From Candidatus Auribacterota bacterium (GTDB lineage: Bacteria > Auribacterota > Tritonobacteria > UBA1439), in NCBI GenBank assembly GCA_026392035.1, contig JAPLCX010000083.1, forward strand, positions 4,597-68,596: DNA of 64,000 bases, written 5' to 3'. Below the pieces are notes generated by a model. The model was not told the DNA's origin. It saw nothing but the letters and a program-made list of their open reading frames with translations, and ran no database searches. How positions within the stretch are numbered: position 1 is the first letter of the stretch; each line of letters opens with the position of its first letter. Positions 912 through 62,430 of the stretch are shown here, in pieces. A program made the translations under genes and the position numbers.

Positions 912-2287
912 TCAACCTCCTCAGTTTGGGATTTGGGACCCGCCTGAGGCGGGTAAATTTGGGACTTGCCCGCCGAATGGCGGGTTTGGGATTTTTTAAA
1001 ATATTCCTCGACCAGCTTTATCGAGCAGTAGTCACCGCACATGGTGCAGACATCCGAGCTGCGCGAAGGGCTCGCTGCACGTATCGATTCGGCCCTGCGC
1101 GTGTCCAGGGCGAGCGCAATCATCCCCTCCCAGTCCCTCTGCTTGCGTTTTTTTGCCATGGCCAGGTCCCAGCCGGCCGCCCCGCGGATGCCCTTGGCGA
1201 TGTCCGCCGCGTGCGCCGCGATTCTCGTCGTGATGACTCCCTCCCTCACATCCGCGGGCCCCGGCAGGCCAAGGTGCTCCGTGGAGGTTACGTAGCAGAG
1301 GTAATCCGCGCCGGCACTCGCCGCGATCGCTCCGCCGATGGCCGAGGTGATGTGATCATACCCGGGGGCCACATCGGTCACCAGCGGCCCGAGGACGTAG
1401 AACGGCGCGCCATGACAGACCTCTTTCTCGAGCTTGACATTTTCCTCGATCTTCCCGATCGGCACGTGCCCCGGTCCCTCAATCATCACCTGCACGCCCT
1501 CCCTCAGCGCGTACGTTTGGAGCTCCCCCAGCGTGATCAATTCCTGAAACTGCGCCCGGTCGTTGGCGTCCGCGAGGCAGCCGGGCCTCATCCCGTCGCC
1601 GAGGCTCAGCGTCATGTCATGCTGCGCGGCGAGCTCGACCAGGCGGCTGAAATCGCTGTAGAGCGGGTTCTCTTTCCCATTGGCGATCATCCATGTCACA
1701 AGAAACGCTCCCCCGCGGCTCACCACGTCCAGGATGCGCCCCTCTCGCTTGAGCCGCTCGAGGGCCGAAAGGGTCACGCCGCAGTGGACAGTGATGAAAT
1801 CCACTCCATCCACCCCATGCTCCTCGATGGCGGCGAACATCTCGTCAGCGGTCATGCTCCCGATGCCGCCCCCGGCCCTGGCGCGACGTACCGCCGCCTG
1901 ATATATGGGGACCGTCCCGAGCGGAACGGTGCACGCGGCGAGCAGTTTCCTCCGTATCCCGGGCAGGTCGCCCCCCGTGGAGAGATCCATCACCGTATCG
2001 GCGAGCGCGTCGAGGGCCGCGTCGAGCTTCTCGCGTTCACGCGCCTCGTCCGCAACATCCATCGAGGTGCCGATGTTCGCGTTGACCTTCGTCCTCAACC
2101 CCTTCCCGATTCCGCACTGTCGGGCGATCCGATGGCGTCGGTTGTGGGGTATTACCACCGTGCCCCCGGCGACGGATTCCATGAGGGCCTCTGGAGGCAC
2201 ACCCTCGATCTCGGCCACCGCCCGCACCTCCTCGGTCAGATTGCCGCGCTTCGCCTCGACAACCTGCAGGATTTTTTTGTTCTTCAT
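908..2287 (-). CDS. thiC: phosphomethylpyrimidine synthase ThiC
   Basis: 459-aa ORF, ThiC-like along its length, with CTMCGDYCS cysteine cluster near the C-terminus; the last ~27 codons are encoded by a TTTGGGA repeat element. Confidence 0.9.
   Translation of the reverse strand: MKNKKILQVVEAKRGNLTEEVRAVAEIEGVPPEALMESVAGGTVVIPHNRRHRIARQCGIGKGLRTKVNANIGTSMDVADEAREREKLDAALDALADTVMDLSTGGDLPGIRRKLLAACTVPLGTVPIYQAAVRRARAGGGIGSMTADEMFAAIEEHGVDGVDFITVHCGVTLSALERLKREGRILDVVSRGGAFLVTWMIANGKENPLYSDFSRLVELAAQHDMTLSLGDGMRPGCLADANDRAQFQELITLGELQTYALREGVQVMIEGPGHVPIGKIEENVKLEKEVCHGAPFYVLGPLVTDVAPGYDHITSAIGGAIAASAGADYLCYVTSTEHLGLPGPADVREGVITTRIAAHAADIAKGIRGAAGWDLAMAKKRKQRDWEGMIALALDTRRAESIRAASPSRSSDVCTMCGDYCSIKLVEEYFKKSQTRHSAGKSQIYPPQAGPKSQTEEVE
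925..997. repeat. TTTGGGA heptamer repeat element, copy A (two heptamers, GC hairpin, heptamer, GC hairpin, heptamer)
   Basis: tttgggatttggga-cccgcctgaggcggg-...-tttggga-cttgcccgccgaatggcggg-tttggga; provides the last codons and stop of thiC. Confidence 0.7.
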
Positions 2288-4456: not shown

Positions 4457-5482
4457 TCAGATGAAGAACATGCGCGCTTCGTCATAGAGCTCCCTTGGCA
4501 CCGTCCTCAGCTTTGCAACCGCGTCAGCGAGGGGGACGGACACCACCTCGTTACCCCTCAGGCTCACCATCCTGCCGAACGCGCCCTGCATGATCAACCC
4601 GACGGCGTGAACCCCGAAGCGGAGGCCGATGAATCGGTCGAGGGCGGTCGGGCTGCCTCCGCGCTGGAGGTGCCCCAGGACCACGCAGCGGGTCTCGTAC
4701 CCCGTGCGCTTCTCTATCTCCCATGCCAACCGCTCACCGATGCCGCCGAGCCTGACATGGCCAAAGGCGTCCCGTTCCTCGGTCTGCAGCGCCACGCTAC
4801 CCCCGAGCTCAGCCCCCTCCGCGACGGCCACAATGCTGAAATCGGCGTAGTGCTCGTGCCGCTCCCTGAGCACGCGGCAGAGATCATCCAGATCGGCCTT
4901 GACCTCGGGGATGAGGATGTAGCTGGCGGCGCCCGCCAGGCCTGCCCAGATGGTGATCCACCCCGCGTGCCGCCCCATAATCTCAACAACCATCACGCGC
5001 TCGTGTGATTCCGCGGTTGTCTTCAAGCGGTCGCACGCCTCCATGGCGGTGTTGACGGCGGTGTCAAAACCGAATGTCCTGTCCGTCCCCGACAGGTCGT
5101 TGTCGATTGTCTTGGGCACGCCCACCGCGGGAAGGCCTGCCTCAGACAACCTCTTGGCGGCCCCGAGCGTGTCATCGCCGCCAACCGCCACGAGGGCGTG
5201 AAGCCCCATCTTCTTGAAGTTGTCCATTACCAGGCGAATCTGATCATCGCTCTCGCATGGATTGGTGCGTGATGTACGGAGGATTGTCCCGCCCTGGCAC
5301 ACAATGCCGAGGATGTCCTTCATCGAAAGCTCAACCCGGTCACACTCCAGCATGCCTCGCCAGCCGTGCCGTATCCCCAGAACCCTGTACCCCTCAACCG
5401 TGGCTCTGCGCACCACCCCCGCGATCACCGCATTCAATCCGGGGCAGTCGCCGCCCCCCGTCAGAATCCCTATTGTCTTCAT
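4457..5482 (-). CDS. pfkA: 6-phosphofructokinase
   Basis: GILTGGGDCPGLN, GGDDTL and MGRHAGW motifs; ORF extends to 5575, start likely Met-32 (MKTIGILTGGG). Confidence 0.85.
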   Translation of the reverse strand: MKTIGILTGGGDCPGLNAVIAGVVRRATVEGYRVLGIRHGWRGMLECDRVELSMKDILGIVCQGGTILRTSRTNPCESDDQIRLVMDNFKKMGLHALVAVGGDDTLGAAKRLSEAGLPAVGVPKTIDNDLSGTDRTFGFDTAVNTAMEACDRLKTTAESHERVMVVEIMGRHAGWITIWAGLAGAASYILIPEVKADLDDLCRVLRERHEHYADFSIVAVAEGAELGGSVALQTEERDAFGHVRLGGIGERLAWEIEKRTGYETRCVVLGHLQRGGSPTALDRFIGLRFGVHAVGLIMQGAFGRMVSLRGNEVVSVPLADAVAKLRTVPRELYDEARMFFI

Positions 5483-9649: not shown

Positions 9650-9719
9650 CACAGATTTCTCTGATTATTTATGCCTTTTCTGAGTAAATCAGTGGTGATT
9701 CATCTGTGGTAACATCCGT
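9650..9719. promoter_or_regulatory. ATC(A/T/C)GTG half-site cluster upstream of aroQ
   Basis: CACAGAT 9650; ATCAGTG 9688, ATCTGTG 9702, ATCCGTA 9714. Confidence 0.35.
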
Positions 9720-11849
9720 ATAATTAAGCCGCTGTATAGAAATTCTTTCCTTTCTCCATTTATGCTCGATCTCAGCCACCCGCTCCCTGACCATCGCGTC
9801 CAGCCTCTCGTACTCGGCGGGGCTGTGGCGGCGGATTCTCTTCGGTTTCTCACGCGCGACATGGATCAATCCCAACCCGCGGCGGTATTCACCCAGGGAC
9901 TCCGCCGGTCTCCCTGTCGTTTCGAGCCAGTAGGCCAGCAGGAGGTGATAGTCAACATCGTGCGGACTGCACGCGATGGCCTTCCGGAGCTCATCCATCG
10001 CTGCGGCGGCTTTTCCCTTGTCAGAGCCGCCGCCCGCATGGCGCCAGTAGCAGGCCGCGAGACGGAAATGGTAGGCGGGGATGCCCTCCCCGCGCACCGC
10101 AGCCTGCCGATATGCGGCCAGGGCGCCCCCGACATTCCCTGCCCTTTCCAGTATTTCCGCGAGGGAGTTCCAGTAGACCGGGTTATCACCCTCGAGTGAA
10201 AGCGCCTTGAGAACCTCTTCGCCGGCCCGGTCCCGCATCCCCCGTGTTTCCAGTTCTTGAGACCTCAGGCGGTGCCACTCAGCCCCGGCACGCGGCCCGA
10301 TCCAAAAAATCGCGGCCCCGAGGACGAGAAACCCCAGGAGCACACCGGACAACGCGGGCAGCCGGCGCGCGCGCGAGTGCGCCGTGGAAGCGCCGATTCC
10401 GAGCCCCGCGAGGGCCCAGAGCGTGAGACTCGTTTCCGGCACGCTCAGGTTCACGTCTATCGCGCCGTGCACCAGGAAGGCGCAGATGGAGATTGTCACT
10501 GCAAACGGGATAGCCTTTTCTGCCCGCGCCTGGTCGCATGAACAATTACTCTGGGATTTGGGATGCGCTTGTCCCGAGCGAAGCCGAGGGAAGATTTGGG
10601 ATTTAATAAGTGCCCGGATGCAGGAAACCCAGAGGCATATGAACGCGGCGAGGCCGATGGCGCCCATTTCTGAGGCGAGCCCCAGGTAGATATTATGGGG
10701 TAACCTCCCCTCCTCGGACCCCGGCGCCCTGAAACGCGCGTACGCGCCCGCAAAGCCTCCCGGCCCAAGTCCGCGCACCGGATTCTCCCGCCACATCCCC
10801 AGTGCGGCCCGCCAATAGTCAACGCGCGCCCCGGCGCTGTCTTTCATACCGGCTGGAACCATGTCCGCGAGCACCGCGACCACCACCAGGGCGAGCACCA
10901 CGAGTCCTATGGCAGACGCGATCTTGTACCTCCCCCGCAACAGGAGCGGGGTGAAAAGGACGGAAAATAGTAACGCGAGCCATGCCCCTTCGGACGCGGT
11001 GAGCGAGAGCGCCCAGAGGGGAAGGATCACCAGCGGGAGGGCGCACAGGTTCAGCAAGAGCCGGCTCCCTTTTCTCTCGGCGATGGCGAGCCCCGACAGG
11101 ACGGTGCTCGCGGCGGCAAAGAGGCACACCAGGAGGAGCGGCCTGGCGCTGAGATCGCTGAAGAATCCCCAGGCGACCGATGCGGCCAGGAGCGCGCCCA
11201 GGTACGTGCCGTAGCACGCGGCCAGTGAATCCGCCCGCGGCCAGAAAAATATCGAGGCGACGAACGGGATCGCGATGATGAGGTACCCCGCAAGTGCGTT
11301 CGGATAGAAAAAGGTTGAAAAAATGGCGTTCGAAGAAACTCTGCTCACGAATGCCGAACTTTGGTCGCCGGCCATCATTGCCCCGCTCAGGAGCGCGCGG
11401 GTCTCGCTCAAACCATAGAAGTATTGATGCAGACCGTACAGCGACACAAGGATAACGCCGGAAGCCACGCCGATAGAGAGGGCAATCCTTGCGGGGCGCG
11501 AGGAGCCGAGGTTCTCCGCGAGGAGGTACGCGGCGGTACAGGCGGCGGTCTGAAAAAAGAAATCCCTCGCGAGCCACTGCCGGCCCGAGCACATGGAGAG
11601 CAGGAGTACCACAAGGAAATAGAGCAGGACAAAGGCGCCGGTACGGGTCACACGCCATGGTATTCCGCCCCTGAGGGCAGAGCTATACAGGGAGAAGGCG
11701 AGGAGCATGGCGAGGATGAGGAGGATGGCCACGTTGCTCTCGGGGTAGGTCACTCCAGACCAGAGGACCCTCAGGACAAGGACTGCGCCAAGCGCGATGC
11801 CCAGTGCGATCGGCGCGGCTGATCCACTTTTTCCCGCTTCGCTGCTCAC
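9669..11849 (-). CDS. O-antigen ligase (Wzy_C)-like polytopic membrane protein fused to C-terminal TPR repeats
   Basis: About 12 TM helices and a Wzy_C-like loop, then TPR-like repeats (AAYRQAAVRGEGIPAYHFRLAACYW...); carries an in-frame TTTGGGA-repeat insertion (KSQIFPRLRSGQAHPKSQ). Confidence 0.7.
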   Translation of the reverse strand: MSSEAGKSGSAAPIALGIALGAVLVLRVLWSGVTYPESNVAILLILAMLLAFSLYSSALRGGIPWRVTRTGAFVLLYFLVVLLLSMCSGRQWLARDFFFQTAACTAAYLLAENLGSSRPARIALSIGVASGVILVSLYGLHQYFYGLSETRALLSGAMMAGDQSSAFVSRVSSNAIFSTFFYPNALAGYLIIAIPFVASIFFWPRADSLAACYGTYLGALLAASVAWGFFSDLSARPLLLVCLFAAASTVLSGLAIAERKGSRLLLNLCALPLVILPLWALSLTASEGAWLALLFSVLFTPLLLRGRYKIASAIGLVVLALVVVAVLADMVPAGMKDSAGARVDYWRAALGMWRENPVRGLGPGGFAGAYARFRAPGSEEGRLPHNIYLGLASEMGAIGLAAFICLWVSCIRALIKSQIFPRLRSGQAHPKSQSNCSCDQARAEKAIPFAVTISICAFLVHGAIDVNLSVPETSLTLWALAGLGIGASTAHSRARRLPALSGVLLGFLVLGAAIFWIGPRAGAEWHRLRSQELETRGMRDRAGEEVLKALSLEGDNPVYWNSLAEILERAGNVGGALAAYRQAAVRGEGIPAYHFRLAACYWRHAGGGSDKGKAAAAMDELRKAIACSPHDVDYHLLLAYWLETTGRPAESLGEYRRGLGLIHVAREKPKRIRRHSPAEYERLDAMVRERVAEIEHKWRKERISIQRLNYTDVTTDESPLIYSEKA
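10551..10604. repeat. TTTGGGA heptamer repeat element, copy B (inside the ligase-TPR CDS)
   Basis: ctgggatttggga-...gcttgtcccgagcgaagccgaggg...-atttgggattt; keeps the reading frame. Confidence 0.65.
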
Positions 11850-19472: not shown

Positions 19473-19568
19473 CTCAGCCGATGTATCTTAACATGCATAT
19501 TTTGTCTCACCAGTAACCAAGGTTTTAAAAGATAGTTACATCACCGATTGCGCCGAGGCTCCCCCCAC

Positions 19569-20723
19569 TCATCTTCTGGATAAGAGCGCATTGTATAAAT
19601 TTATATATCTCGGAATAACATACTCGCTGGAATAGCACTTTCCGATCTTTTCCCTTGCTCGCCTTCCCAAAAGCCTTGCGCCCTGTTCATCATTCAATAT
19701 TCCCAGGATAGCCTGCGCCAACTCCTCACTACTGCTTGGTCGCACCAGAATGCCATCAACGCCATCCTCAATCAGATCAGTATTGCCGCCTATCACTGTA
19801 GCAACACACGGGAGGCCGCAAGCCATAGCCTCCATAAGTGAGTTGGATAAACCTTCAGAGAGCGAGTGAAGGATGAAGATATCGCTGGCTTGAAAATAGG
19901 AGGAAATGGTGCTCGTCTTAGGTAAGAACAATACCTTCCCTTGTAAGTTTAAGTCGCATATCTGATTTTCTAAATCCGCTTTCAGCTTCCCCTCACCAAT
20001 CAGCACAAGGATGGAATGCGGGTAGTGAAAAGATACTTCAGCCCATGCTTCGATCAAACACGAAGGAGTCTTCTGGGGAACTAACCTCCCTATAAACAAT
20101 GCTATTTTGTTATCTGCGGGGAGGCAAAGGTCGCTCCGTAATCGCATCTTTACGCCATCTTGAACAGGATGAAACTTCTTCAGATCTACAAAGTTGGGTA
20201 TATGGAATATTTTTCCAGGGCTCAAGCCAAGCATCCCTAACTCATATTCTATTTGCCTGCTAATAGCAATGAAGGCGTCCACTCGATTGCAGATCGCACT
20301 GAGAAGTCTGGTCCCTATTATCTTCCTTATCCTTGCTAATTCACCGAACTGTCCTCCACATGCGATTTTAACTACAACCTTTTTATTGAATAACCAGGAA
20401 ATAACCAATGCAGACAAAGTGTGGTGATACAGAATATGAGTATGAATAACATCGTAATCATCCCTTTTTCTGTAGAGAAATACAAAGGTACTTAACAAAT
20501 AGCTTATGCCGCATATAAATCTCCATCTCAAGGGCATGATATCTCTGTAAACAAGCAGGCCATCTAAATCCTCTACCCTTTGCAAACCCCTTATCCTCTC
20601 AGTAAGGACGAATACTTTCAGGCCGCCTTTTATCAATTCCCGGGCCAGGTTCTCCGTCTGTTTCTCTGCCCCGCCGATAACGGGATGGAACAGGGAGCAA
20701 ATCATGCAAATCCTAGGACTCAT
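19569..20723 (-). CDS. glycosyltransferase family 4
   Basis: HPVIGGAEKQ N-terminal GT4 motif and C-terminal LSEGLSNSLMEAMACGLP; AT-rich gene. Confidence 0.75.
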   Translation of the reverse strand: MSPRICMICSLFHPVIGGAEKQTENLARELIKGGLKVFVLTERIRGLQRVEDLDGLLVYRDIMPLRWRFICGISYLLSTFVFLYRKRDDYDVIHTHILYHHTLSALVISWLFNKKVVVKIACGGQFGELARIRKIIGTRLLSAICNRVDAFIAISRQIEYELGMLGLSPGKIFHIPNFVDLKKFHPVQDGVKMRLRSDLCLPADNKIALFIGRLVPQKTPSCLIEAWAEVSFHYPHSILVLIGEGKLKADLENQICDLNLQGKVLFLPKTSTISSYFQASDIFILHSLSEGLSNSLMEAMACGLPCVATVIGGNTDLIEDGVDGILVRPSSSEELAQAILGILNDEQGARLLGRRAREKIGKCYSSEYVIPRYINLYNALLSRR

Positions 20724-21777: not shown

Positions 21778-21781
21778 TTTT

Positions 21782-21911
21782 GAAAAAGGGGACAGGCTAC
21801 TTTTTCTGTTGAGTTTATGCATCGGTAGTGCTTTTCATCTGTGTGAGAGAGTGATTTTTTCTTTCCTTTTGATTCTTATCCGAGGTGAAAAAGTAGCCTG
21901 TCCCCTTTTTC
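21782..21911. repeat. perfect 25-bp inverted repeat (gaaaaaggggacaggctactttttc / gaaaaagtagcctgtcccctttttc) enclosing an 80-bp AT-rich loop
   Basis: Arms at 21782-21806 and 21887-21911; the loop holds the rfbD stop codon and the motif CACACAGATGAAAAGCAC (minus-strand reading). Confidence 0.75.
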
Positions 21912-22750
21912 ATGTACTCCCCTACCGCCTCTCTCCATTGCCGCATCGGGGCGCCAGTCAGCCCGGCGTAGCGTGAGCCATCGAGCGCCGAGAACGGCGG
22001 CCGCGGGGCGGGGCGAGAGAGGCGTTCGCTCGTGATCTCGTTCACCCTCACACCGCTGATCCCCCCGAGTTCGAGGATCGCGCGGGCGTACTCGCACCAG
22101 GAACAGACGCCGCTATTCGTCACATTGACGATGCCCCGGCAGTCTGTCATGAGCAGCGAGCCGATTGCCTTGGCGAGATCGCGCGCGTAGGTGGGGCAAC
22201 CGCGCTGGTCTCCCACCACCTCAAGGACAGGCTGCCTGGCCGCGGCCCTGAGTATCGTGTCAACAAAGTTCTTCCCGTGCAGGCCGAAGAGCCACGAGGT
22301 TCTGACAATGATATAGTCGTCGAGGCCGCGCCGGACCGCCTGCTCCCCGGCCAGTTTCGATTTCCCGTATGCGCTCTGGGGATTTGTCGCCGCGTCCTCT
22401 CGGTAGGGCTTTTTCGCGCGGCCGTCGAAGACGTAGTCCGTGCTCAGGTAAATCATCCTGGCGCAGGCGGCGCGGCAGGCCGCGGCGACGTACCCCGCCC
22501 CCTGCGCGTTAACGGCGAACGCACCGTCCGGGTCACCCTCGCACCCATCGACATCCGTGCGCGCGGCCGCGTTGACGACAGCATGCGGCCTGAGCTCCCT
22601 GATATACGCCTCCGTGCCCTCTCTATCGGTGATATCAACCTCGCCGATGTCAACGCCGGTGAGCTCCCACGCGGGCGAGAGAATATCCATCAGCTCGTGC
22701 CCGAGCATGCCCGCTGCCCCGATCACCAGGATTCTCTCATGTGTGGCCAT
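21815..22750 (-). CDS. rfbD: dTDP-4-dehydrorhamnose reductase
   Basis: ILVIGAAGMLG Rossmann start and YGKSK catalytic motif; the C-terminal ~30 codons run into the inverted-repeat element. Confidence 0.85.
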   Translation of the reverse strand: MATHERILVIGAAGMLGHELMDILSPAWELTGVDIGEVDITDREGTEAYIRELRPHAVVNAAARTDVDGCEGDPDGAFAVNAQGAGYVAAACRAACARMIYLSTDYVFDGRAKKPYREDAATNPQSAYGKSKLAGEQAVRRGLDDYIIVRTSWLFGLHGKNFVDTILRAAARQPVLEVVGDQRGCPTYARDLAKAIGSLLMTDCRGIVNVTNSGVCSWCEYARAILELGGISGVRVNEITSERLSRPAPRPPFSALDGSRYAGLTGAPMRQWREAVGEYMKKGTGYFFTSDKNQKERKNHSLTQMKSTTDA

Positions 22751-22880
22751 TGTTCAACCCTGAAGGCAATCTCTTGATCCGAACCGGCGAACCGGTGTAT
22801 CGGCGAAAAGGAACGTTGATCATTGAACTGTGTATGCTATTGCGCCGTCTCGCCGATTCGCCCTGTCGCCGTTTCGCGGG

Positions 22881-37293: not shown

Positions 37294-38372
37294 GGGTCAA
37301 ACCCGAAGTTCTAAGTTATTGACTCCATTATTTTTCCTACGCGCTCTTCTAGCTGCTTGTTCTGCTTCAGCTCTATCTGAACCTTCTTATGAACCTGGTT
37401 GATTCGCTCACCGCTAACCCCACCCAATTCTTGGCCCATTTCTTTAAGACTCATAATCTTGAAATTAGTTCGATACGTTATATCGAGTAACACTTGCCGG
37501 GCTTCCTTATGTCTCGATCTACTCTTGCTAATTTCTTCCGCTTTGACTCCATATTCTTTTGCTACCGCTTCAGCCAATTCCTTAATTGGAATCGCCTTCT
37601 TAATCTCTTTTAAATGCGAGTAATCATAAACCAGCAATTCTCTTTGTTTCAAGATATTCGTAGAAACCCAGGTCACAAAATTATCAGTTCCCAACAAAGC
37701 ATTTGCTCTTGCTTTTTCCAATGGATTGTTTAGATCCAATGCTATCCCCTTCAAAACAAAATCCCTATACGCCGCCCTGCACAGCTTATCATCCCCTCCC
37801 ATATAGGCCAATACCATGTCATAACGCATAAAATCATCCCGTTCTCTTGACCTAATATAACCAAGAAAACTGCTCCAATAATACCCCCCCAATATACCAA
37901 TCTTTTTTTCAAGCGGAAGATTGCGATACTTCTCTAACCGCACAGGATTTAAATGAATGTAGCGGCTCAGTTCCAACAAGTATTCATCTGCTTCGATTAG
38001 AATAGCCTTATATCGACCTTGATAGAGATGCCCCGCGCGGTGATGGCGCAGATTGTAATACGTGATATAGGTAGTGTTAAAGCGCTGCATAAATCTACTT
38101 AGATTTGCATCTAATGTCCTCAACAAAAAATGGAAATGGTTACCCATTAATACATAACCGTGCACTTCTATATTGAATAATGCTGCGCTTTCCCTTAGAA
38201 TCTGAAGAAATTTGTTCCGATCTTTATCATCCCTAAAGATATTTGCCCTCTGGTTTCCTCGAGAGGTTACATGATACCATGCATTGTGATATTCTATTCT
38301 CAATGGTCTGGCCATGTTTAAAGAATATCATCAATGAGCACTATTGTCAATTTAGAACTTCGGGTTTGACCC
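37294..38372. mobile_element. compact transposase cassette bounded by perfect 21-bp inverted repeats (gggtcaaacccgaagttctaa / ttagaacttcgggtttgaccc)
   Basis: Repeats at 37294-37314 and 38352-38372 exactly enclose the AT-rich transposase gene, between two divergent GT39 genes. Confidence 0.6.
37311..38315 (-). CDS. IS200/IS605-like Y1 (HUH) transposase with C-terminal DnaA-type HTH (RAYT-like)
   Basis: HUH motif EVHGYVLMGNHFHFLL and catalytic-Tyr region, plus a C-terminal Bac_DnaA_C-like helix-turn-helix; markedly AT-rich. Confidence 0.75.
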   Translation of the reverse strand: MARPLRIEYHNAWYHVTSRGNQRANIFRDDKDRNKFLQILRESAALFNIEVHGYVLMGNHFHFLLRTLDANLSRFMQRFNTTYITYYNLRHHRAGHLYQGRYKAILIEADEYLLELSRYIHLNPVRLEKYRNLPLEKKIGILGGYYWSSFLGYIRSRERDDFMRYDMVLAYMGGDDKLCRAAYRDFVLKGIALDLNNPLEKARANALLGTDNFVTWVSTNILKQRELLVYDYSHLKEIKKAIPIKELAEAVAKEYGVKAEEISKSRSRHKEARQVLLDITYRTNFKIMSLKEMGQELGGVSGERINQVHKKVQIELKQNKQLEERVGKIMESIT

Positions 38373-43301: not shown

Positions 43302-45278
43302 TCAGGGAGTCAGCCCTGGACTCACGTGCGACGCCGCCTCCCTGTCTCTTTGCGCAGCGGCGGAGCACCCCATCCTATCGAGGAGGGCGGCGCGTCCGAG
43401 CAGGAGTTCTCTCTGTTGAGGAGAAGAATCGATCACGTTTGAAACATCCACAATGCGCGCGAGCAGCGCTGCTCGTGCCTTTATTTCCTGCTCCTCTGGC
43501 CTCACCGCGAGCGCGCGGAGATGAATCTCGAGCGATTTCCGATACTCACCTCTCTCAATGAGAATCGCCGTGAGGTCGTTGAGCACGAGCGGATTCAAGG
43601 GATCCATTTGAAGGGACTTCTCAAAATAGGGGATCGCCGCCTCCCTGTCACCCGAATAGTCATAGCTGTGCCCGATCACCGCGTACCTGTAGGCGCTCTC
43701 CGGTGTCTCATAGAATATGAAGAGAAGAATCATTGCACATGTGATCAGAATACAGAGCCACAGAAAACACATGTCCAGCGATGTCAAAGGAGATCGTGCT
43801 CCCACTGTTCCCATTCTTTTCCCCGTGGCTAGGAACAAGGCGATACCTCCGCCAATGAGTGTGACCAACACCACGAGGCTCGCCCCGCGAGGACATCCCA
43901 GGAGTGTGAGCCAGTTCGGCCGCACATTACCCCTCAGGAAGGATGGCAATAAAAATTCCCTCACTGGATTATGCAGGTGCTCATGGGCAGATGCCCCCGC
44001 CGCGGTGCCAATAAAATTAAAGATTACCGAATAAATAACGAGAACGCTGAGCATCCAGCCGTACCCCTTGGGCTGCCGCGCCATGAGGGACGCGATCGGT
44101 ACTATAAAAAACGGAATCACAGGGACTAAAAACCTCGGACCGTAACCCGCGCCGCCCGCCCACGCAGTGTACGAAGAGTTGAAGATGGCATAGCCGAGAA
44201 CAGTGATAAGGCATAGCCAAAAAAGTCTCCCCCTGCCCAGGCCGACGACACTCTCCACCGCATCGTTATCTGTACTCCTTTTTGCGAGCGAATACAGCCC
44301 TGGCACTATCAGCAGCAAAAACGGCGAGACAAAAAATATGCCGCGAAAAGGGCTCACCATCAACATCAGGAACGGGATGAGTTCCGGCATTCTCACGCCG
44401 AAAAGACCCTGTGACTGAACCTCCCTCGCGATCGGCATCGCCTCGTGGGCATAGGGGAAACTGAGCATGTCACCAAAGCAGGCGTAGTTATACAAGAGGA
44501 TTAAAAAAACACCGGGGATGCACCCGAGGGCAAAAATGATGGTATCTCCGATCCGCCGGAAAGAGAATGCAGTGAAGATGAATATCACGCACAGAATGAG
44601 CATCACCTGGTAGTCAGCCGCGACCGCGAGCCCGCCGAGCACTCCCGCCACCAGAAGCGACGAGCGGGCGAAACGGCCCCTCGACTCCGCTCGGGACAAG
44701 CTCGTCGGCGAAATGGCGGAAGCCAAGACTCTTCTCCATTTTAGCAATACTATAAAACAGCCGAATAACAGTACGGCAGCGAGCTGGTGTCCCACAAACT
44801 GAGTGCTGTATGGGAAGGCCATGGTCCCCAGGCTGTAGGCGACGACGAGCAGATCGGCATAATATTCAGATCGCACGAAACGGTTGAGAACATCGTGCAG
44901 GAGAAGGGCCAGGAGCACGCTCGGCAGGGCGATCACGCACACCTGAACCAGGTAGAGATAAACCCAGTCGGGAATGGCGAAATACCTTCCGACTGTTTCC
45001 CATGCCAACCAGTACACAGGAACGGCGAGGAACGATGTCGCGGGAGCCTTCCCGCTGTAGTAATGGCCCTGATAAAACGCGGCGTCTATTCCGCCGAGGT
45101 AATATTTCTCTATGGAAAAGCTCCGATCGAGCGCGAGGCTTTTGGCGAGATAGAACCTGACGCTGGTGTTCGTACCGAAATTTTCCGGGGACGGCGGCGG
45201 CACGAAAAAGGTGTAGGCAATCAGAATGGTGCACGTCAGCGCCGCGCAGTGCAGCATGCGATTGGACCGCTTGGCCAT
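43302..45278 (-). CDS. GT39-like membrane glycosyltransferase with C-terminal TPR repeats (TMTC-like architecture)
   Basis: About 500-aa polytopic N-domain then TPR repeats (YRYAVIGHSYDYSGDREAAIPYFEKSLQMDP...). Confidence 0.65.
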   Translation of the reverse strand: MAKRSNRMLHCAALTCTILIAYTFFVPPPSPENFGTNTSVRFYLAKSLALDRSFSIEKYYLGGIDAAFYQGHYYSGKAPATSFLAVPVYWLAWETVGRYFAIPDWVYLYLVQVCVIALPSVLLALLLHDVLNRFVRSEYYADLLVVAYSLGTMAFPYSTQFVGHQLAAVLLFGCFIVLLKWRRVLASAISPTSLSRAESRGRFARSSLLVAGVLGGLAVAADYQVMLILCVIFIFTAFSFRRIGDTIIFALGCIPGVFLILLYNYACFGDMLSFPYAHEAMPIAREVQSQGLFGVRMPELIPFLMLMVSPFRGIFFVSPFLLLIVPGLYSLAKRSTDNDAVESVVGLGRGRLFWLCLITVLGYAIFNSSYTAWAGGAGYGPRFLVPVIPFFIVPIASLMARQPKGYGWMLSVLVIYSVIFNFIGTAAGASAHEHLHNPVREFLLPSFLRGNVRPNWLTLLGCPRGASLVVLVTLIGGGIALFLATGKRMGTVGARSPLTSLDMCFLWLCILITCAMILLFIFYETPESAYRYAVIGHSYDYSGDREAAIPYFEKSLQMDPLNPLVLNDLTAILIERGEYRKSLEIHLRALAVRPEEQEIKARAALLARIVDVSNVIDSSPQQRELLLGRAALLDRMGCSAAAQRDREAASHVSPGLTP

Positions 45279-57210: not shown

Positions 57211-57368
57211 TTCACCACGGAGACACGGAGAACACGGAGAACAAGAGATTATTACAAAGGGCAAAAGAACCGAATGAATAACATACCTGGAAGCTCCACC
57301 ACAGAGGGTATGAGACTGCTTTCATAAGCCATATCCTTACTCCGTGCTCTCCGTGCCTCCGTGGTAAA
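57211..57368. repeat. inverted pair of CACGGAG-repeat arms flanking about 100 bp (MITE-like or long stem)
   Basis: Left ttcaccacggagacacggagaacacggaga at 57211-57241; right tccgtgctctccgtgcctccgtggtaaa at 57341-57368 is its near reverse complement. Confidence 0.6.
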
Positions 57369-58983: not shown

Positions 58984-58999
58984 AAAACATTACACGATC

Positions 59000-59050
59000 T
59001 TCTCCGTGCCCTCCGTGCCCCTGCCTGCCGGCAGGCAGGTCCGTGGTGAA
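59000..59050. repeat. CACGGAG-repeat / CCTGCCTGCCGGCAGGCAGG palindrome element, copy 3 (inverted relative to copy 1)
   Basis: tctccgtgccctccgtgcc-cctgcctgccggcaggcagg-tccgtggtgaa. Confidence 0.65.
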
Positions 59051-59128
59051 AACCAATTAAACAAAAGCGCACGGGCGCTCCATTCCTCCACGCCCGCGCG
59101 CCTCGCGTGCTGCGCCTCTTCAACAACC

Positions 59129-60749: not shown

Positions 60750-60802
60750 AAATCCCAAATCCCAAACCTTAAATCCCAAATCCAAAATCCCAAATCCCAA
60801 TA
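60750..60802. repeat. TTTGGGA heptamer repeat element, copy C (seven tandem heptamers in the prfB 5' leader)
   Basis: Minus strand reads ATTGGGA TTTGGGA TTTTGGA TTTGGGA TTTAAGG TTTGGGA TTTGGGA, ending 15 nt before the prfB ATG. Confidence 0.75.
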
Positions 60803-62324: not shown

Positions 62325-62430
62325 GTTCAAACGGTTTAAACCCCTGCACTCAGGTTCAAACCGTTCAAATTGTTGAAATTGTTAAAGTCGTTCACCGTAT
62401 CGAATCAAACGGCTCCAACGACTTAAACGA
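62325..62430. repeat. degenerate 9-bp tandem repeat TT(C/A)AA(A/C)N(C/T)G, about 8 copies, in the secA–lnt intergenic region
   Basis: ttcaaacgg tttaaaccc ... ttcaaaccg ttcaaattg ttgaaattg ttaaagtcg ttcaccg ... tcaaacggc ... ttaaacgat. Confidence 0.5.

Follow-up and report, generated by a model that had tools for sequence, protein, structure and literature searches.

An in-frame insertion composed of two nested short repeats in a putative O-antigen ligase-type gene of an uncultured bacterium

Tandem heptanucleotides of cyanobacteria, termed short tandemly repeated repetitive, or STRR, sequences, have the consensus CCCCAGT and similar. Copies of these are reportedly found inside the RNase P RNA gene, according to the title of a 1997 paper by Vioque. 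Rickettsia palindromic elements (RPEs) are selfish repeats carried in frame within genes, and miniature inverted-repeat transposable elements, or MITEs, are small, non-autonomous and dispersed, and sometimes give rise to in-frame fusions (PMC10969869). Repetitive extragenic palindromic (REP) sequences, REP doublets forming hairpins (REPINs) and bacterial interspersed mosaic elements (BIMEs), together with the REP-associated tyrosine transposases (RAYTs), constitute a further group (PMC2817692, PMC3116915, PMC3337134). Here we describe an insertion in a gene for a Wzy_C membrane protein of a Candidatus Auribacterota bacterium, in a stretch of 64,000 nucleotides (positions 4,597 to 68,596 of contig JAPLCX010000083.1, assembly GCA_026392035.1) that we refer to, at its full length, as the window. 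The insertion is probably passenger DNA made up of two nested, dispersed short repeats, an array of AAATCCC heptamers and a GC-rich unit of 24 nucleotides (nt), that lies in frame in a short loop between transmembrane segments just after the catalytic loop of Wzy_C. It would be tolerated there because it is free of stop codons, has a length that is a multiple of three and falls in an unconstrained loop.

The host gene (9669..11849, minus strand) encodes a multi-pass membrane protein of 726 amino acids with a Wzy_C (O-antigen ligase/polymerase-like) domain and a C-terminal TPR domain. In Pfam, Wzy_C (PF04932) matches residues 273-404 with 60.7 bits (cutoff 31.7; 1.9e-16) and several TPR families match the C-terminal third; by the former match the enzyme is a putative ligase/polymerase-type membrane protein. 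Syntenic orthologues share 62-93% amino acid identity with it. A preliminary description of this DNA had reported an in-frame, repeat-derived insertion in the gene, and the plus strand at 10551-10604 indeed reads GGGATTTGGGAT, GCGCTTGTCCCGAGCGAAGCCGAGGGAA and GATTTGGGATTT in succession, with the minus-strand open reading frame (ORF) continuing uninterrupted as ..CIRALIKSQIFPRLRSGQAHPKSQSNCSCDQ.. across it. The reported size of 20 codons is, however, too small. DNA alignment with the empty alleles of two orthologous loci, L001 and L007, delimits an insertion of 69 nt, or 23 codons (10540..10608, minus strand; residues 415-437, IKSQIFPRLRSGQAHPKSQSNCS), of which the earlier span is the core; the AT-rich flanks left out of it are also inserted DNA.

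Nor is the insertion a single element, as had been supposed, but two nested repeats, the heptamer array and a separate 24-nt unit with a distribution of its own. Aligned to the perfect (AAATCCC)4 of loci L004, L003 and L009, the array is represented by two remnants on the minus strand, one at 10591..10604, 5' in the sense of the gene (AAATCCCAAATCTT), and one at 10553..10566, 3' in that sense (GCATCCCAAATCCC). Between them, at 10567..10590 on the plus strand, is the GC-rich unit (GCTTGTCCCGAGCGAAGCCGAGGG), which encodes PRLRSGQA on the gene strand and accounts for exactly the additional 24 nt relative to L004 and L003. In unit-bearing relatives the 3' remnant is decaying (CACCCCGAATCCC, CACCCCGGATCCC). 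The GC-rich core had further been described as partly self-complementary; folding of the insert DNA gave z-scores of -0.08 and +0.35 for the two strands, which is about 0 and not significant, and a hairpin nature of the core was ruled out for the single unit on this ground.

Two further features of the host gene were observed at its 3' end (9669-9770) and beyond. The C-terminal tail of the protein, from ..HKWRKERISIQRLNY.. onward, is without counterpart in homologues, and the next gene lies 72 nt away in the window, compared with about 300 nt in L002.

A database search yielded 26 protein relatives, the 22 closest of which were aligned, and the contigs encoding syntenic orthologues were aligned as DNA. 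Ten orthologous ligase loci were compared in this way (the window and L001-L009), nine with full-length ORFs and one, L006, partial. The segment is lacking in 14 homologues at 45-50% identity, in P0008 (62%) and in P0002 (91-94%), and these segment-free proteins read ..SLCAGARRREP.. at the insertion point. It is carried by six relatives in three versions: the insert of P0001, P0003 and P0004 is that of the window, P0005 and P0007 show KSQIPNPKSQ only, and P0006 has KSQIPNPKSQICHSAGKSQ at the site.

At the DNA level the site presents a size series of 0, 45, 69 and 72 nt, with the frame kept in every version. L001, which is 95.9% identical to the window in the rest of the gene, and L007 are empty. 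The 45-nt version, found in L004 and in L003/L009, consists of TTA, (AAATCCC)4 and an AT-rich tail; the window, L002, L005 and L006 have this version with exactly 24 nt added between heptamers 2 and 3; and the 72-nt version of L008 has four heptamers, a small hairpin (TGCCATTCGGCA) and one further heptamer. Carriers of the four-heptamer array without the 24-nt unit are relatives at 71-82% nucleotide identity. None of the nine full-length ligase ORFs is disrupted, and the partial L006 reads open through the site. The orthologous ligases, whose comparison the preliminary description had suggested as a check, differ in presence and absence, two being empty and the others filled. The finding that would have told against a repeat-derived origin, conservation of the segment in distant homologues that lack the DNA repeat, is the opposite of what is seen, since the repeat-free homologues are also without the peptide. 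The insert-bearing alleles are unlikely to be assembly artefacts because they appear in six independent assemblies.

That the two empty sequences, L001 and L007, are nested among insert-bearing relatives could be taken to mean that the segment is ancestral and has been deleted wherever it is lacking. We regard this as extremely improbable, however, since the segment is absent from 14 of 14 homologues at 45-50% identity, its DNA consists of repeats that recur at other places in the window and in genomes of unrelated organisms, and the empty alleles also differ from the filled ones in 72 flanking nucleotides, a difference that no deletion could create. Deletion was rejected in favour of insertion on the grounds of the outgroups and of the repetitive make-up of the DNA.

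The flanking difference is itself informative. It comprises a patch of 72 nt directly downstream of the insertion in the gene (10468..10539, minus strand; CDQARAEKAIPFAVTISICAFLVH) that co-varies with the presence of the insert. By gene-wide nucleotide identity L003 belongs with L007 (78.3%), and the window belongs with L001 (95.9%), L002, L005, L004 and L008, which means that each of the two empty alleles has filled alleles as its nearest relatives. In the patch, by contrast, the window is only 62.5% identical to L001, against 95.9% in the rest of the gene, and L003 is 52.8% identical to L007, against 78.3% elsewhere, whereas the two empty alleles are more alike in the patch (75%) than in the rest of the gene (69.5%). 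These comparisons reveal two old haplotypes, one empty and one filled and accompanied by a diverged patch, whose distribution is discordant with the gene tree, and we infer at least two short-patch recombination events in place of clean excision. Clean excision in L001 was rejected on the same evidence, as about 40% of the adjacent 72 nt differ in a gene that is otherwise 96% identical. A chimeric assembly of L001 was also considered and thought unlikely, since a distant genome would need to share exact 31-mers on both sides of the patch.

In an AlphaFold2 (AF2) model of the host protein, which has a mean predicted local distance difference test score (pLDDT) of 83, the score falls below 50 at residues 423-429 and 431-437, between helices 387-419 and 446-464. 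The insert is thus found in a loop, as had been expected, although the periplasmic location given to that loop in the preliminary description is probably wrong. Searches of Protein Data Bank structures and sequences with the host protein returned TPR proteins only and provided no template for topology. In characterised family members the Wzy_C loop is periplasmic, and helix 387-419 would therefore run from the periplasm to the cytoplasm; the invariant Arg and His of this loop are, by alignment, R342 and H385. The loops that are cytoplasmic on that reading are all rich in Arg and Lys, including the ARRREP of the empty alleles. Because the insertion loop follows the helix that leaves the periplasmic Wzy_C loop, and because ARRREP fits the positive-inside rule, the loop is most readily placed in the cytoplasm.

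A cytoplasmic loop of this kind could in principle be useful to the enzyme, for example as a regulatory or interaction site, and be maintained by selection on the protein. The insertion is retained in six lineages, in genes down to about 71% nucleotide identity, and the downstream patch has changed along with it, from ARRREP to ARAEKA, while the insert adds lysines, with the result that the positive charge of the loop is conserved. Nevertheless, we consider selection for such a role improbable. Substitutions in the segment often change residues among relatives at 87-94% nucleotide identity, and outside the repeat-encoded KSQ motifs the residues vary freely between close relatives (F/L, K/E/G, Q/R/H, R/L, N/S). 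Moreover, three different fillers are tolerated in the loop, its pLDDT is below 50, and natural empty alleles exist in genes that are otherwise near-identical.

The outer of the two repeats is dispersed in the window and well beyond it. The window has 15 occurrences of TTTGGGA or its complement TCCCAAA where base composition predicts about 6.6, and three clusters (925-991, 10557-10601 and 60753-60794) hold 10 of them. None of the six frames of the heptamer contains a stop codon, and it always translates as KSQIPNP or GIWDLGF, so that an insertion with a length that is a multiple of three leaves a gene open; for the same reason arrays can sit inside genes, and gene callers read through them. 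A query with both peptides matched at least 1590 database ORFs (among them P0115-P0234), almost all of them 'hypothetical proteins' of 40-120 amino acids, found in numerous metagenomes and in a small set of named taxa (Desulfobacterales, Xanthomonas and a flavobacterium). These 'proteins' are probably spurious gene calls over translated (GGGATTT)n arrays. Several of the ORFs join both orientations of the heptamer around a GC-rich filler. Nothing relevant on the heptamer, the unit sequence or repeats of Aureabacteria came up in literature searches, where the heptamer matched plant telomere papers only, and no Rfam family reached threshold anywhere in the window. The plant telomere repeat was discarded as a candidate, as TTTGGGA is the mirror image of TTTAGGG and not the same repeat.

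The first of the clusters, copy A (925..991, minus strand), has TCCCAAA heptamers flanking two GC hairpins (z-scores -3.9 and -4.1) at the ThiC/PfkB junction. The ThiC ORF, of 459 residues, continues through it; the match to the Pfam profile stops at residue 427, and the C-terminal tail of about 32 amino acids beyond this point is read-through of copy A (908-1000). The last cluster, copy C (60750..60800, plus strand), is an intergenic AAATCCC array of 7.3 units between an lnt-like gene and a 353-amino-acid ORF, detected by Tandem Repeats Finder with period 7 and score 74. The filler of the ligase copy differs from those of copies A and C, as previously stated, copy C being an array without filler. 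By contrast, the view that such insertions are uncommon does not hold in this lineage, as the C-terminus of ThiC and a second membrane-protein gene of the window, discussed below, carry them too.

That the repeat is mobile or recombinogenic was proposed in the preliminary description and is favoured by our data, most strongly by the exchange of fillers between arrays. In L012, whose ligase gene has 87% nucleotide identity to that of the window, the ThiC/PfkB junction (19490-19586) contains (AAATCCC)4 and then a different filler of 51 nt. This filler starts with CCCTCGGCTTCGC, the same 13 nt with which the 24-nt unit of the window starts on the gene strand. Likewise, the hairpin GCCATTCGGC is common to copy A of the window and to the ligase insert of L008. 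Mobility or recombination is thus indicated in three ways, by presence/absence polymorphism, by different fillers at one site and by one filler at several sites.

Six independent short-read assemblies (L013-L018) that encode an identical lnt protein all end at one base within copy C, and four of the six start within about 10 nt of each other, shortly beyond an included array of a 9-mer (GTTCAAATT; 62354-62394). Copy C and the 9-mer array are repeated or polymorphic to a degree that interrupts assembly. The breaks in copy C would fit heterogeneity of that array in the population, and this brings to mind a contingency locus, in which slippage by 7 nt would shift the frame and switch a surface-polysaccharide enzyme on and off. 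Genes for surface-glycan enzymes are of the classic phase-variable kind, the host gene is predicted to encode an enzyme of this type, and the 7-nt unit is not a multiple of three. A contingency function of the tract in the ligase gene is nonetheless very improbable, given that L003, L004 and L009 have exactly four units and L008 four plus one, that the array is interrupted in the four unit-bearing loci, and that all nine full-length ORFs are intact and L006 is open. In the window copy the 24-nt unit has no more than 1.7 contiguous heptamers on either side, which is short of what efficient slippage needs. Phase variation was accordingly ruled out by the constant number of units.

The window contains other short repeats that are distinct from the heptamer. 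A second mosaic family has direct CACGGAG(A/AA) units flanking a GC hairpin (CCTGCCTGCCGGCGGGCAGG) and is found at 2295-2348, 57216-57243, 57340-57363 and 58999-59052; two of its copies, each of 54 nt, are 94% complementary and lie 56.6 kb apart. There is also a perfect 26-nt inverted repeat (TGAAAAAGGGGACAGGCTACTTTTTC) at 21781-21806 and 21887-21912, with a spacer of 80 nt.

The inner repeat of the insertion, the 24-nt unit, is also found more than once. A repeat scan paired 10562-10590 with 44678-44706 on the opposite strand, and the 22-nt core has two copies in the window compared with 0 in 100 shuffles. The sequence common to both sites is GCTTGTCCCGAGCG[A/G]AG[C/T]CGAGGG, whose 24 nt are the net gain at each of them. 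The second copy (44678..44701, minus strand) lies in frame, as SLSRAESRG, in a gene for a putative glycosyltransferase/TPR membrane protein of 658 amino acids (43302..45278, minus strand), which has a weak match to a putative glycosyltransferase family and a TPR tail. Relative to its host gene it has the opposite orientation to the ligase copy. A relative of this protein with 87% amino acid identity (P0028, from L010) is without exactly 8 codons, or 24 nt, whereas another with 83% identity (P0029, from L011) has them. The second copy sits within a short tandem array of TTTCGCC-type units. In comparisons of filled with empty junctions, neither target-site duplication nor terminal inverted repeats were seen at either unit, and the two unit junctions share no conserved target motif.

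The array that hosts the second unit (about 44650-44720) belongs to a third short tandem family of the window, made of (T)TTCGCC(G) 7-8-mers and present also at 22843-22877. In more distant homologues of the 658-amino-acid protein the same loop contains long and different repeat-derived segments (RRFADSP.., SPTRPLSPSP..).

Beyond the window, the exact 22-nt core is present in two contigs of a viral collection, and a degenerate 21-nt core in 18 contigs; together with the two window copies these represent 16 distinct flank contexts. One viral-collection copy of the core is in frame in a GemA-like phage gene, where it is translated in a third frame, different from those of the two window copies. 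In one contig of this collection, L022, inverted doublets of GTC(C/T)CGAGCGAAGTCGAG(G/A)GAC-type units at 178-260 and 1436-1510 flank a 378-amino-acid ORF on both sides and fold strongly (z-scores -6.6 and -7.8). Similar doublets, with 76-82% identity, are found in unannotated DNA of eight Sphingobium plasmid records (H1-H8; 0.9-1.0 Mb). This REPIN-like doublet family of L022 and Sphingobium shares a core with the 24-nt unit of the window. Taken with the cores in viral contigs, the doublets suggest that the unit is part of a REP/REPIN-like family that crosses phyla.

The aligned alleles show three steps in the history of the ligase site. An ancestor of the insert-bearing orthologues, which share 71-94% nucleotide identity with the gene of the window, gained 45 nt, consisting of four AAATCCC units and AT-rich flanks. 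In the subclade at about 87% nucleotide identity or more, the 24-nt unit of 8 codons was then gained between heptamers 2 and 3; another lineage, L008, received the small hairpin filler in its place. Filled and empty alleles have been exchanged by short-patch homologous recombination, the empty haplotype, with its different patch, being carried by the very close strain L001 and by the deeper lineage L007. More tentatively, the peptide would be a passenger without specific function, tolerated in a cytoplasmic and unconstrained loop; the heptamer arrays may be preferred landing sites, or homology patches, for GC-rich units; and the units may move between arrays by ectopic gene conversion or by single-strand (HUH/RAYT-like) transposition without target duplication.

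It should be noted that several observations weigh against tolerated passenger DNA as a full account. The cytoplasmic location of the loop is a prediction, and the insertion is kept in most lineages across deep divergence. Only two units and three arrays were seen in about 172 kb of clade sequence, too few to indicate a high copy number. No enzyme has been linked to the repeats, and the inverted repeats of the one candidate transposase gene of the window (GGGTCAAACCCGAAGTTCTAAGTT) were found, in a search of the window allowing 3 mismatches, only at that gene and are unrelated to the unit or the heptamer. Finally, the uninterrupted (AAATCCC)4 is 100% identical among L003, L004 and L008, although codons for identical residues match elsewhere in the gene at only 51-56% in the L003-L004 and L003-L008 pairs (76% in L004-L008). 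For the ten array codons this corresponds to roughly p = 0.001-0.003 per pair for L003-L004 and L003-L008. Simple neutrality fails to predict such purity, which points to homogenisation or to a function at the level of DNA.

One form of the latter would be a role at the level of DNA or RNA for which the heptamer array is retained, for instance through a G-quadruplex (G4) of the GGGATTT strand, or an i-motif of its C-rich counterpart, that influences transcription or replication through the gene, with the coding insertion as a by-product. Four perfect units, as retained here, are the minimum for an intramolecular G4, and it is the synonymous sites of these units that are all identical across lineages that match at 51-56% elsewhere. 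With the G4 option on, the uninterrupted array is predicted to fold as a quadruplex (-11.1 against -8.2 kcal/mol, with RNA parameters), and the heptamers decay where the 24-nt unit interrupts the array. However, the interrupted array of the window, for which no G4 is predicted with RNA parameters, has been retained all the same, the G-rich strand of the ligase gene is the template and not the mRNA, and the orientation of arrays relative to transcription varies among loci. Purity is equally obtainable by gene conversion among copies. For these reasons we think a structural role of the array unlikely to be the explanation.

The candidate transposase gene raises the possibility that a Y1/HUH transposase moves the 24-nt unit, and perhaps also the hairpin fillers, as single-stranded DNA in the manner of REP substrates, with the heptamer arrays as its preferred targets. 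The gene (37311..38315, minus strand) encodes a Y1_Tnp (IS200-like)/RAYT-like protein of 334 amino acids with a DnaA C-terminal domain and is flanked by perfect 24-nt inverted repeats, the GGGTCAAACCCGAAGTTCTAAGTT mentioned above (37294-38372). L010 has it at the corresponding site and L011 does not. Substrates of Y1 transposases insert without target duplication (PMC2817692), and so does the unit. In addition, related units form REPIN-like hairpin doublets elsewhere, and both unit insertions in the window (2 of 2) are within tandem arrays. Against this, the repeats that flank the gene are unique in the window and have no sequence in common with unit or heptamer, the NCBIfam RAYT score of 61 bits is below the cutoff of 80, a single unit forms no significant hairpin, and the two junctions have no conserved target motif. 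The nesting in arrays may only mirror the tolerance of such loops for insertions. Mobilisation by a RAYT-like enzyme of this kind is therefore a possibility to which we attach limited weight.

A broader proposal, which we put forward as speculative and doubtful at present, is that the arrays are dedicated landing pads for GC-rich units of 12-50 nt, some of them shared across phyla and with phages, that move without target duplication, including into coding regions. The arrays would be kept perfect by a DNA-level mechanism, either homogenisation or one linked to G4 formation, that is lost on interruption, and array and cassette would together make up a modular system distinct from REP/BIME elements, MITEs and RPEs.

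Whatever the mechanism, the series of 0, 45, 69 and 72 nt at one codon position is a natural record of very short repeats colonising and remodelling a coding loop in an uncultured phylum. A heptamer without a stop in any frame can enter genes freely, and the arrays appear to attract further GC-rich units. The conservation of synonymous sites in uninterrupted arrays hints at homogenisation or at a role in DNA structure. There are also practical consequences, as the arrays break short-read assemblies and yield many spurious 'hypothetical proteins' in databases. We consider the system to be of moderate interest, for the nesting of units in arrays, for the occurrence of the unit core in viral-collection contigs and of related doublets in Sphingobium, and for the purity of the arrays. 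In outline the mechanism is ordinary, that of selfish repeats tolerated in a gene, and no new kind of system is involved.

Several known systems can be compared with it. Like a contingency locus, the insertion is a short tandem repeat, with a unit that is not a multiple of three, in a surface-polysaccharide gene; unlike one, it shows neither frameshifted alleles nor variation in unit number among the ten orthologous loci, and the array of the window is interrupted. With MITEs it has in common that it is small, dispersed and found in frame, but neither junction has terminal inverted repeats or a target-site duplication, and the insert is well below the typical size of a MITE. With RPEs it shares the behaviour of a dispersed, stop-free repeat that is found in frame in unrelated genes, encodes a tolerated peptide and is present or absent among relatives; in-frame repeat insertions occur here in the ligase loop, the glycosyltransferase-like gene and the ThiC tail and, for the 24-nt unit, in the GemA-like phage gene. 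RPEs are, however, about 100-150 bp long, palindromic and specific to Rickettsia, whereas the insert has 45-72 nt, is not significantly palindromic, is built of a heptamer array and a 24-nt unit, and belongs to an uncultured lineage whose homologues are labelled Candidatus Aureabacteria or Chlamydiota.

The architecture is closer to that of REP/BIME elements. GC-rich units of 20-40 nt stand in mosaics with short linker motifs and insert without target duplication, related units occur as inverted doublets with strong hairpins in L022, and the window contains a RAYT-like gene flanked by inverted repeats. A REP unit is an imperfect palindrome of about 20-40 nt, and here the picture is mixed: the fillers of copy A (z about -4) and the doublets of L022 (z -6.6 and -7.8) are significant hairpins, and the single unit in the window is not. 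REPs often number more than 100 per genome, beside the two units and three arrays in about 172 kb of clade sequence. They are, moreover, extragenic by definition, and each of the two window units lies in frame within an ORF; the RAYT-like gene has its own repeats around it and not the unit; and the linkers are direct tandem heptamers in place of BIME linker motifs. As in the STRR sequences, tandem heptanucleotide arrays are dispersed in the genome and sometimes lie inside a functional gene at a tolerant position, and tandem heptamers are found at three loci in the 64-kb window. They differ from the STRR sequences in their unit, AAATCCC, in the phylum that carries them, and in that the array is translated and is the site of nested insertions. 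The insertion is thus set apart from RPEs, REP/BIME elements and MITEs because it is not significantly palindromic, not extragenic, not matched by cognate RAYT flanks and without terminal inverted repeats or target-site duplication, and its closest counterparts are RPEs in behaviour, REP/BIME elements with their RAYTs in architecture, and the cyanobacterial STRR sequences in its tandem heptamers.

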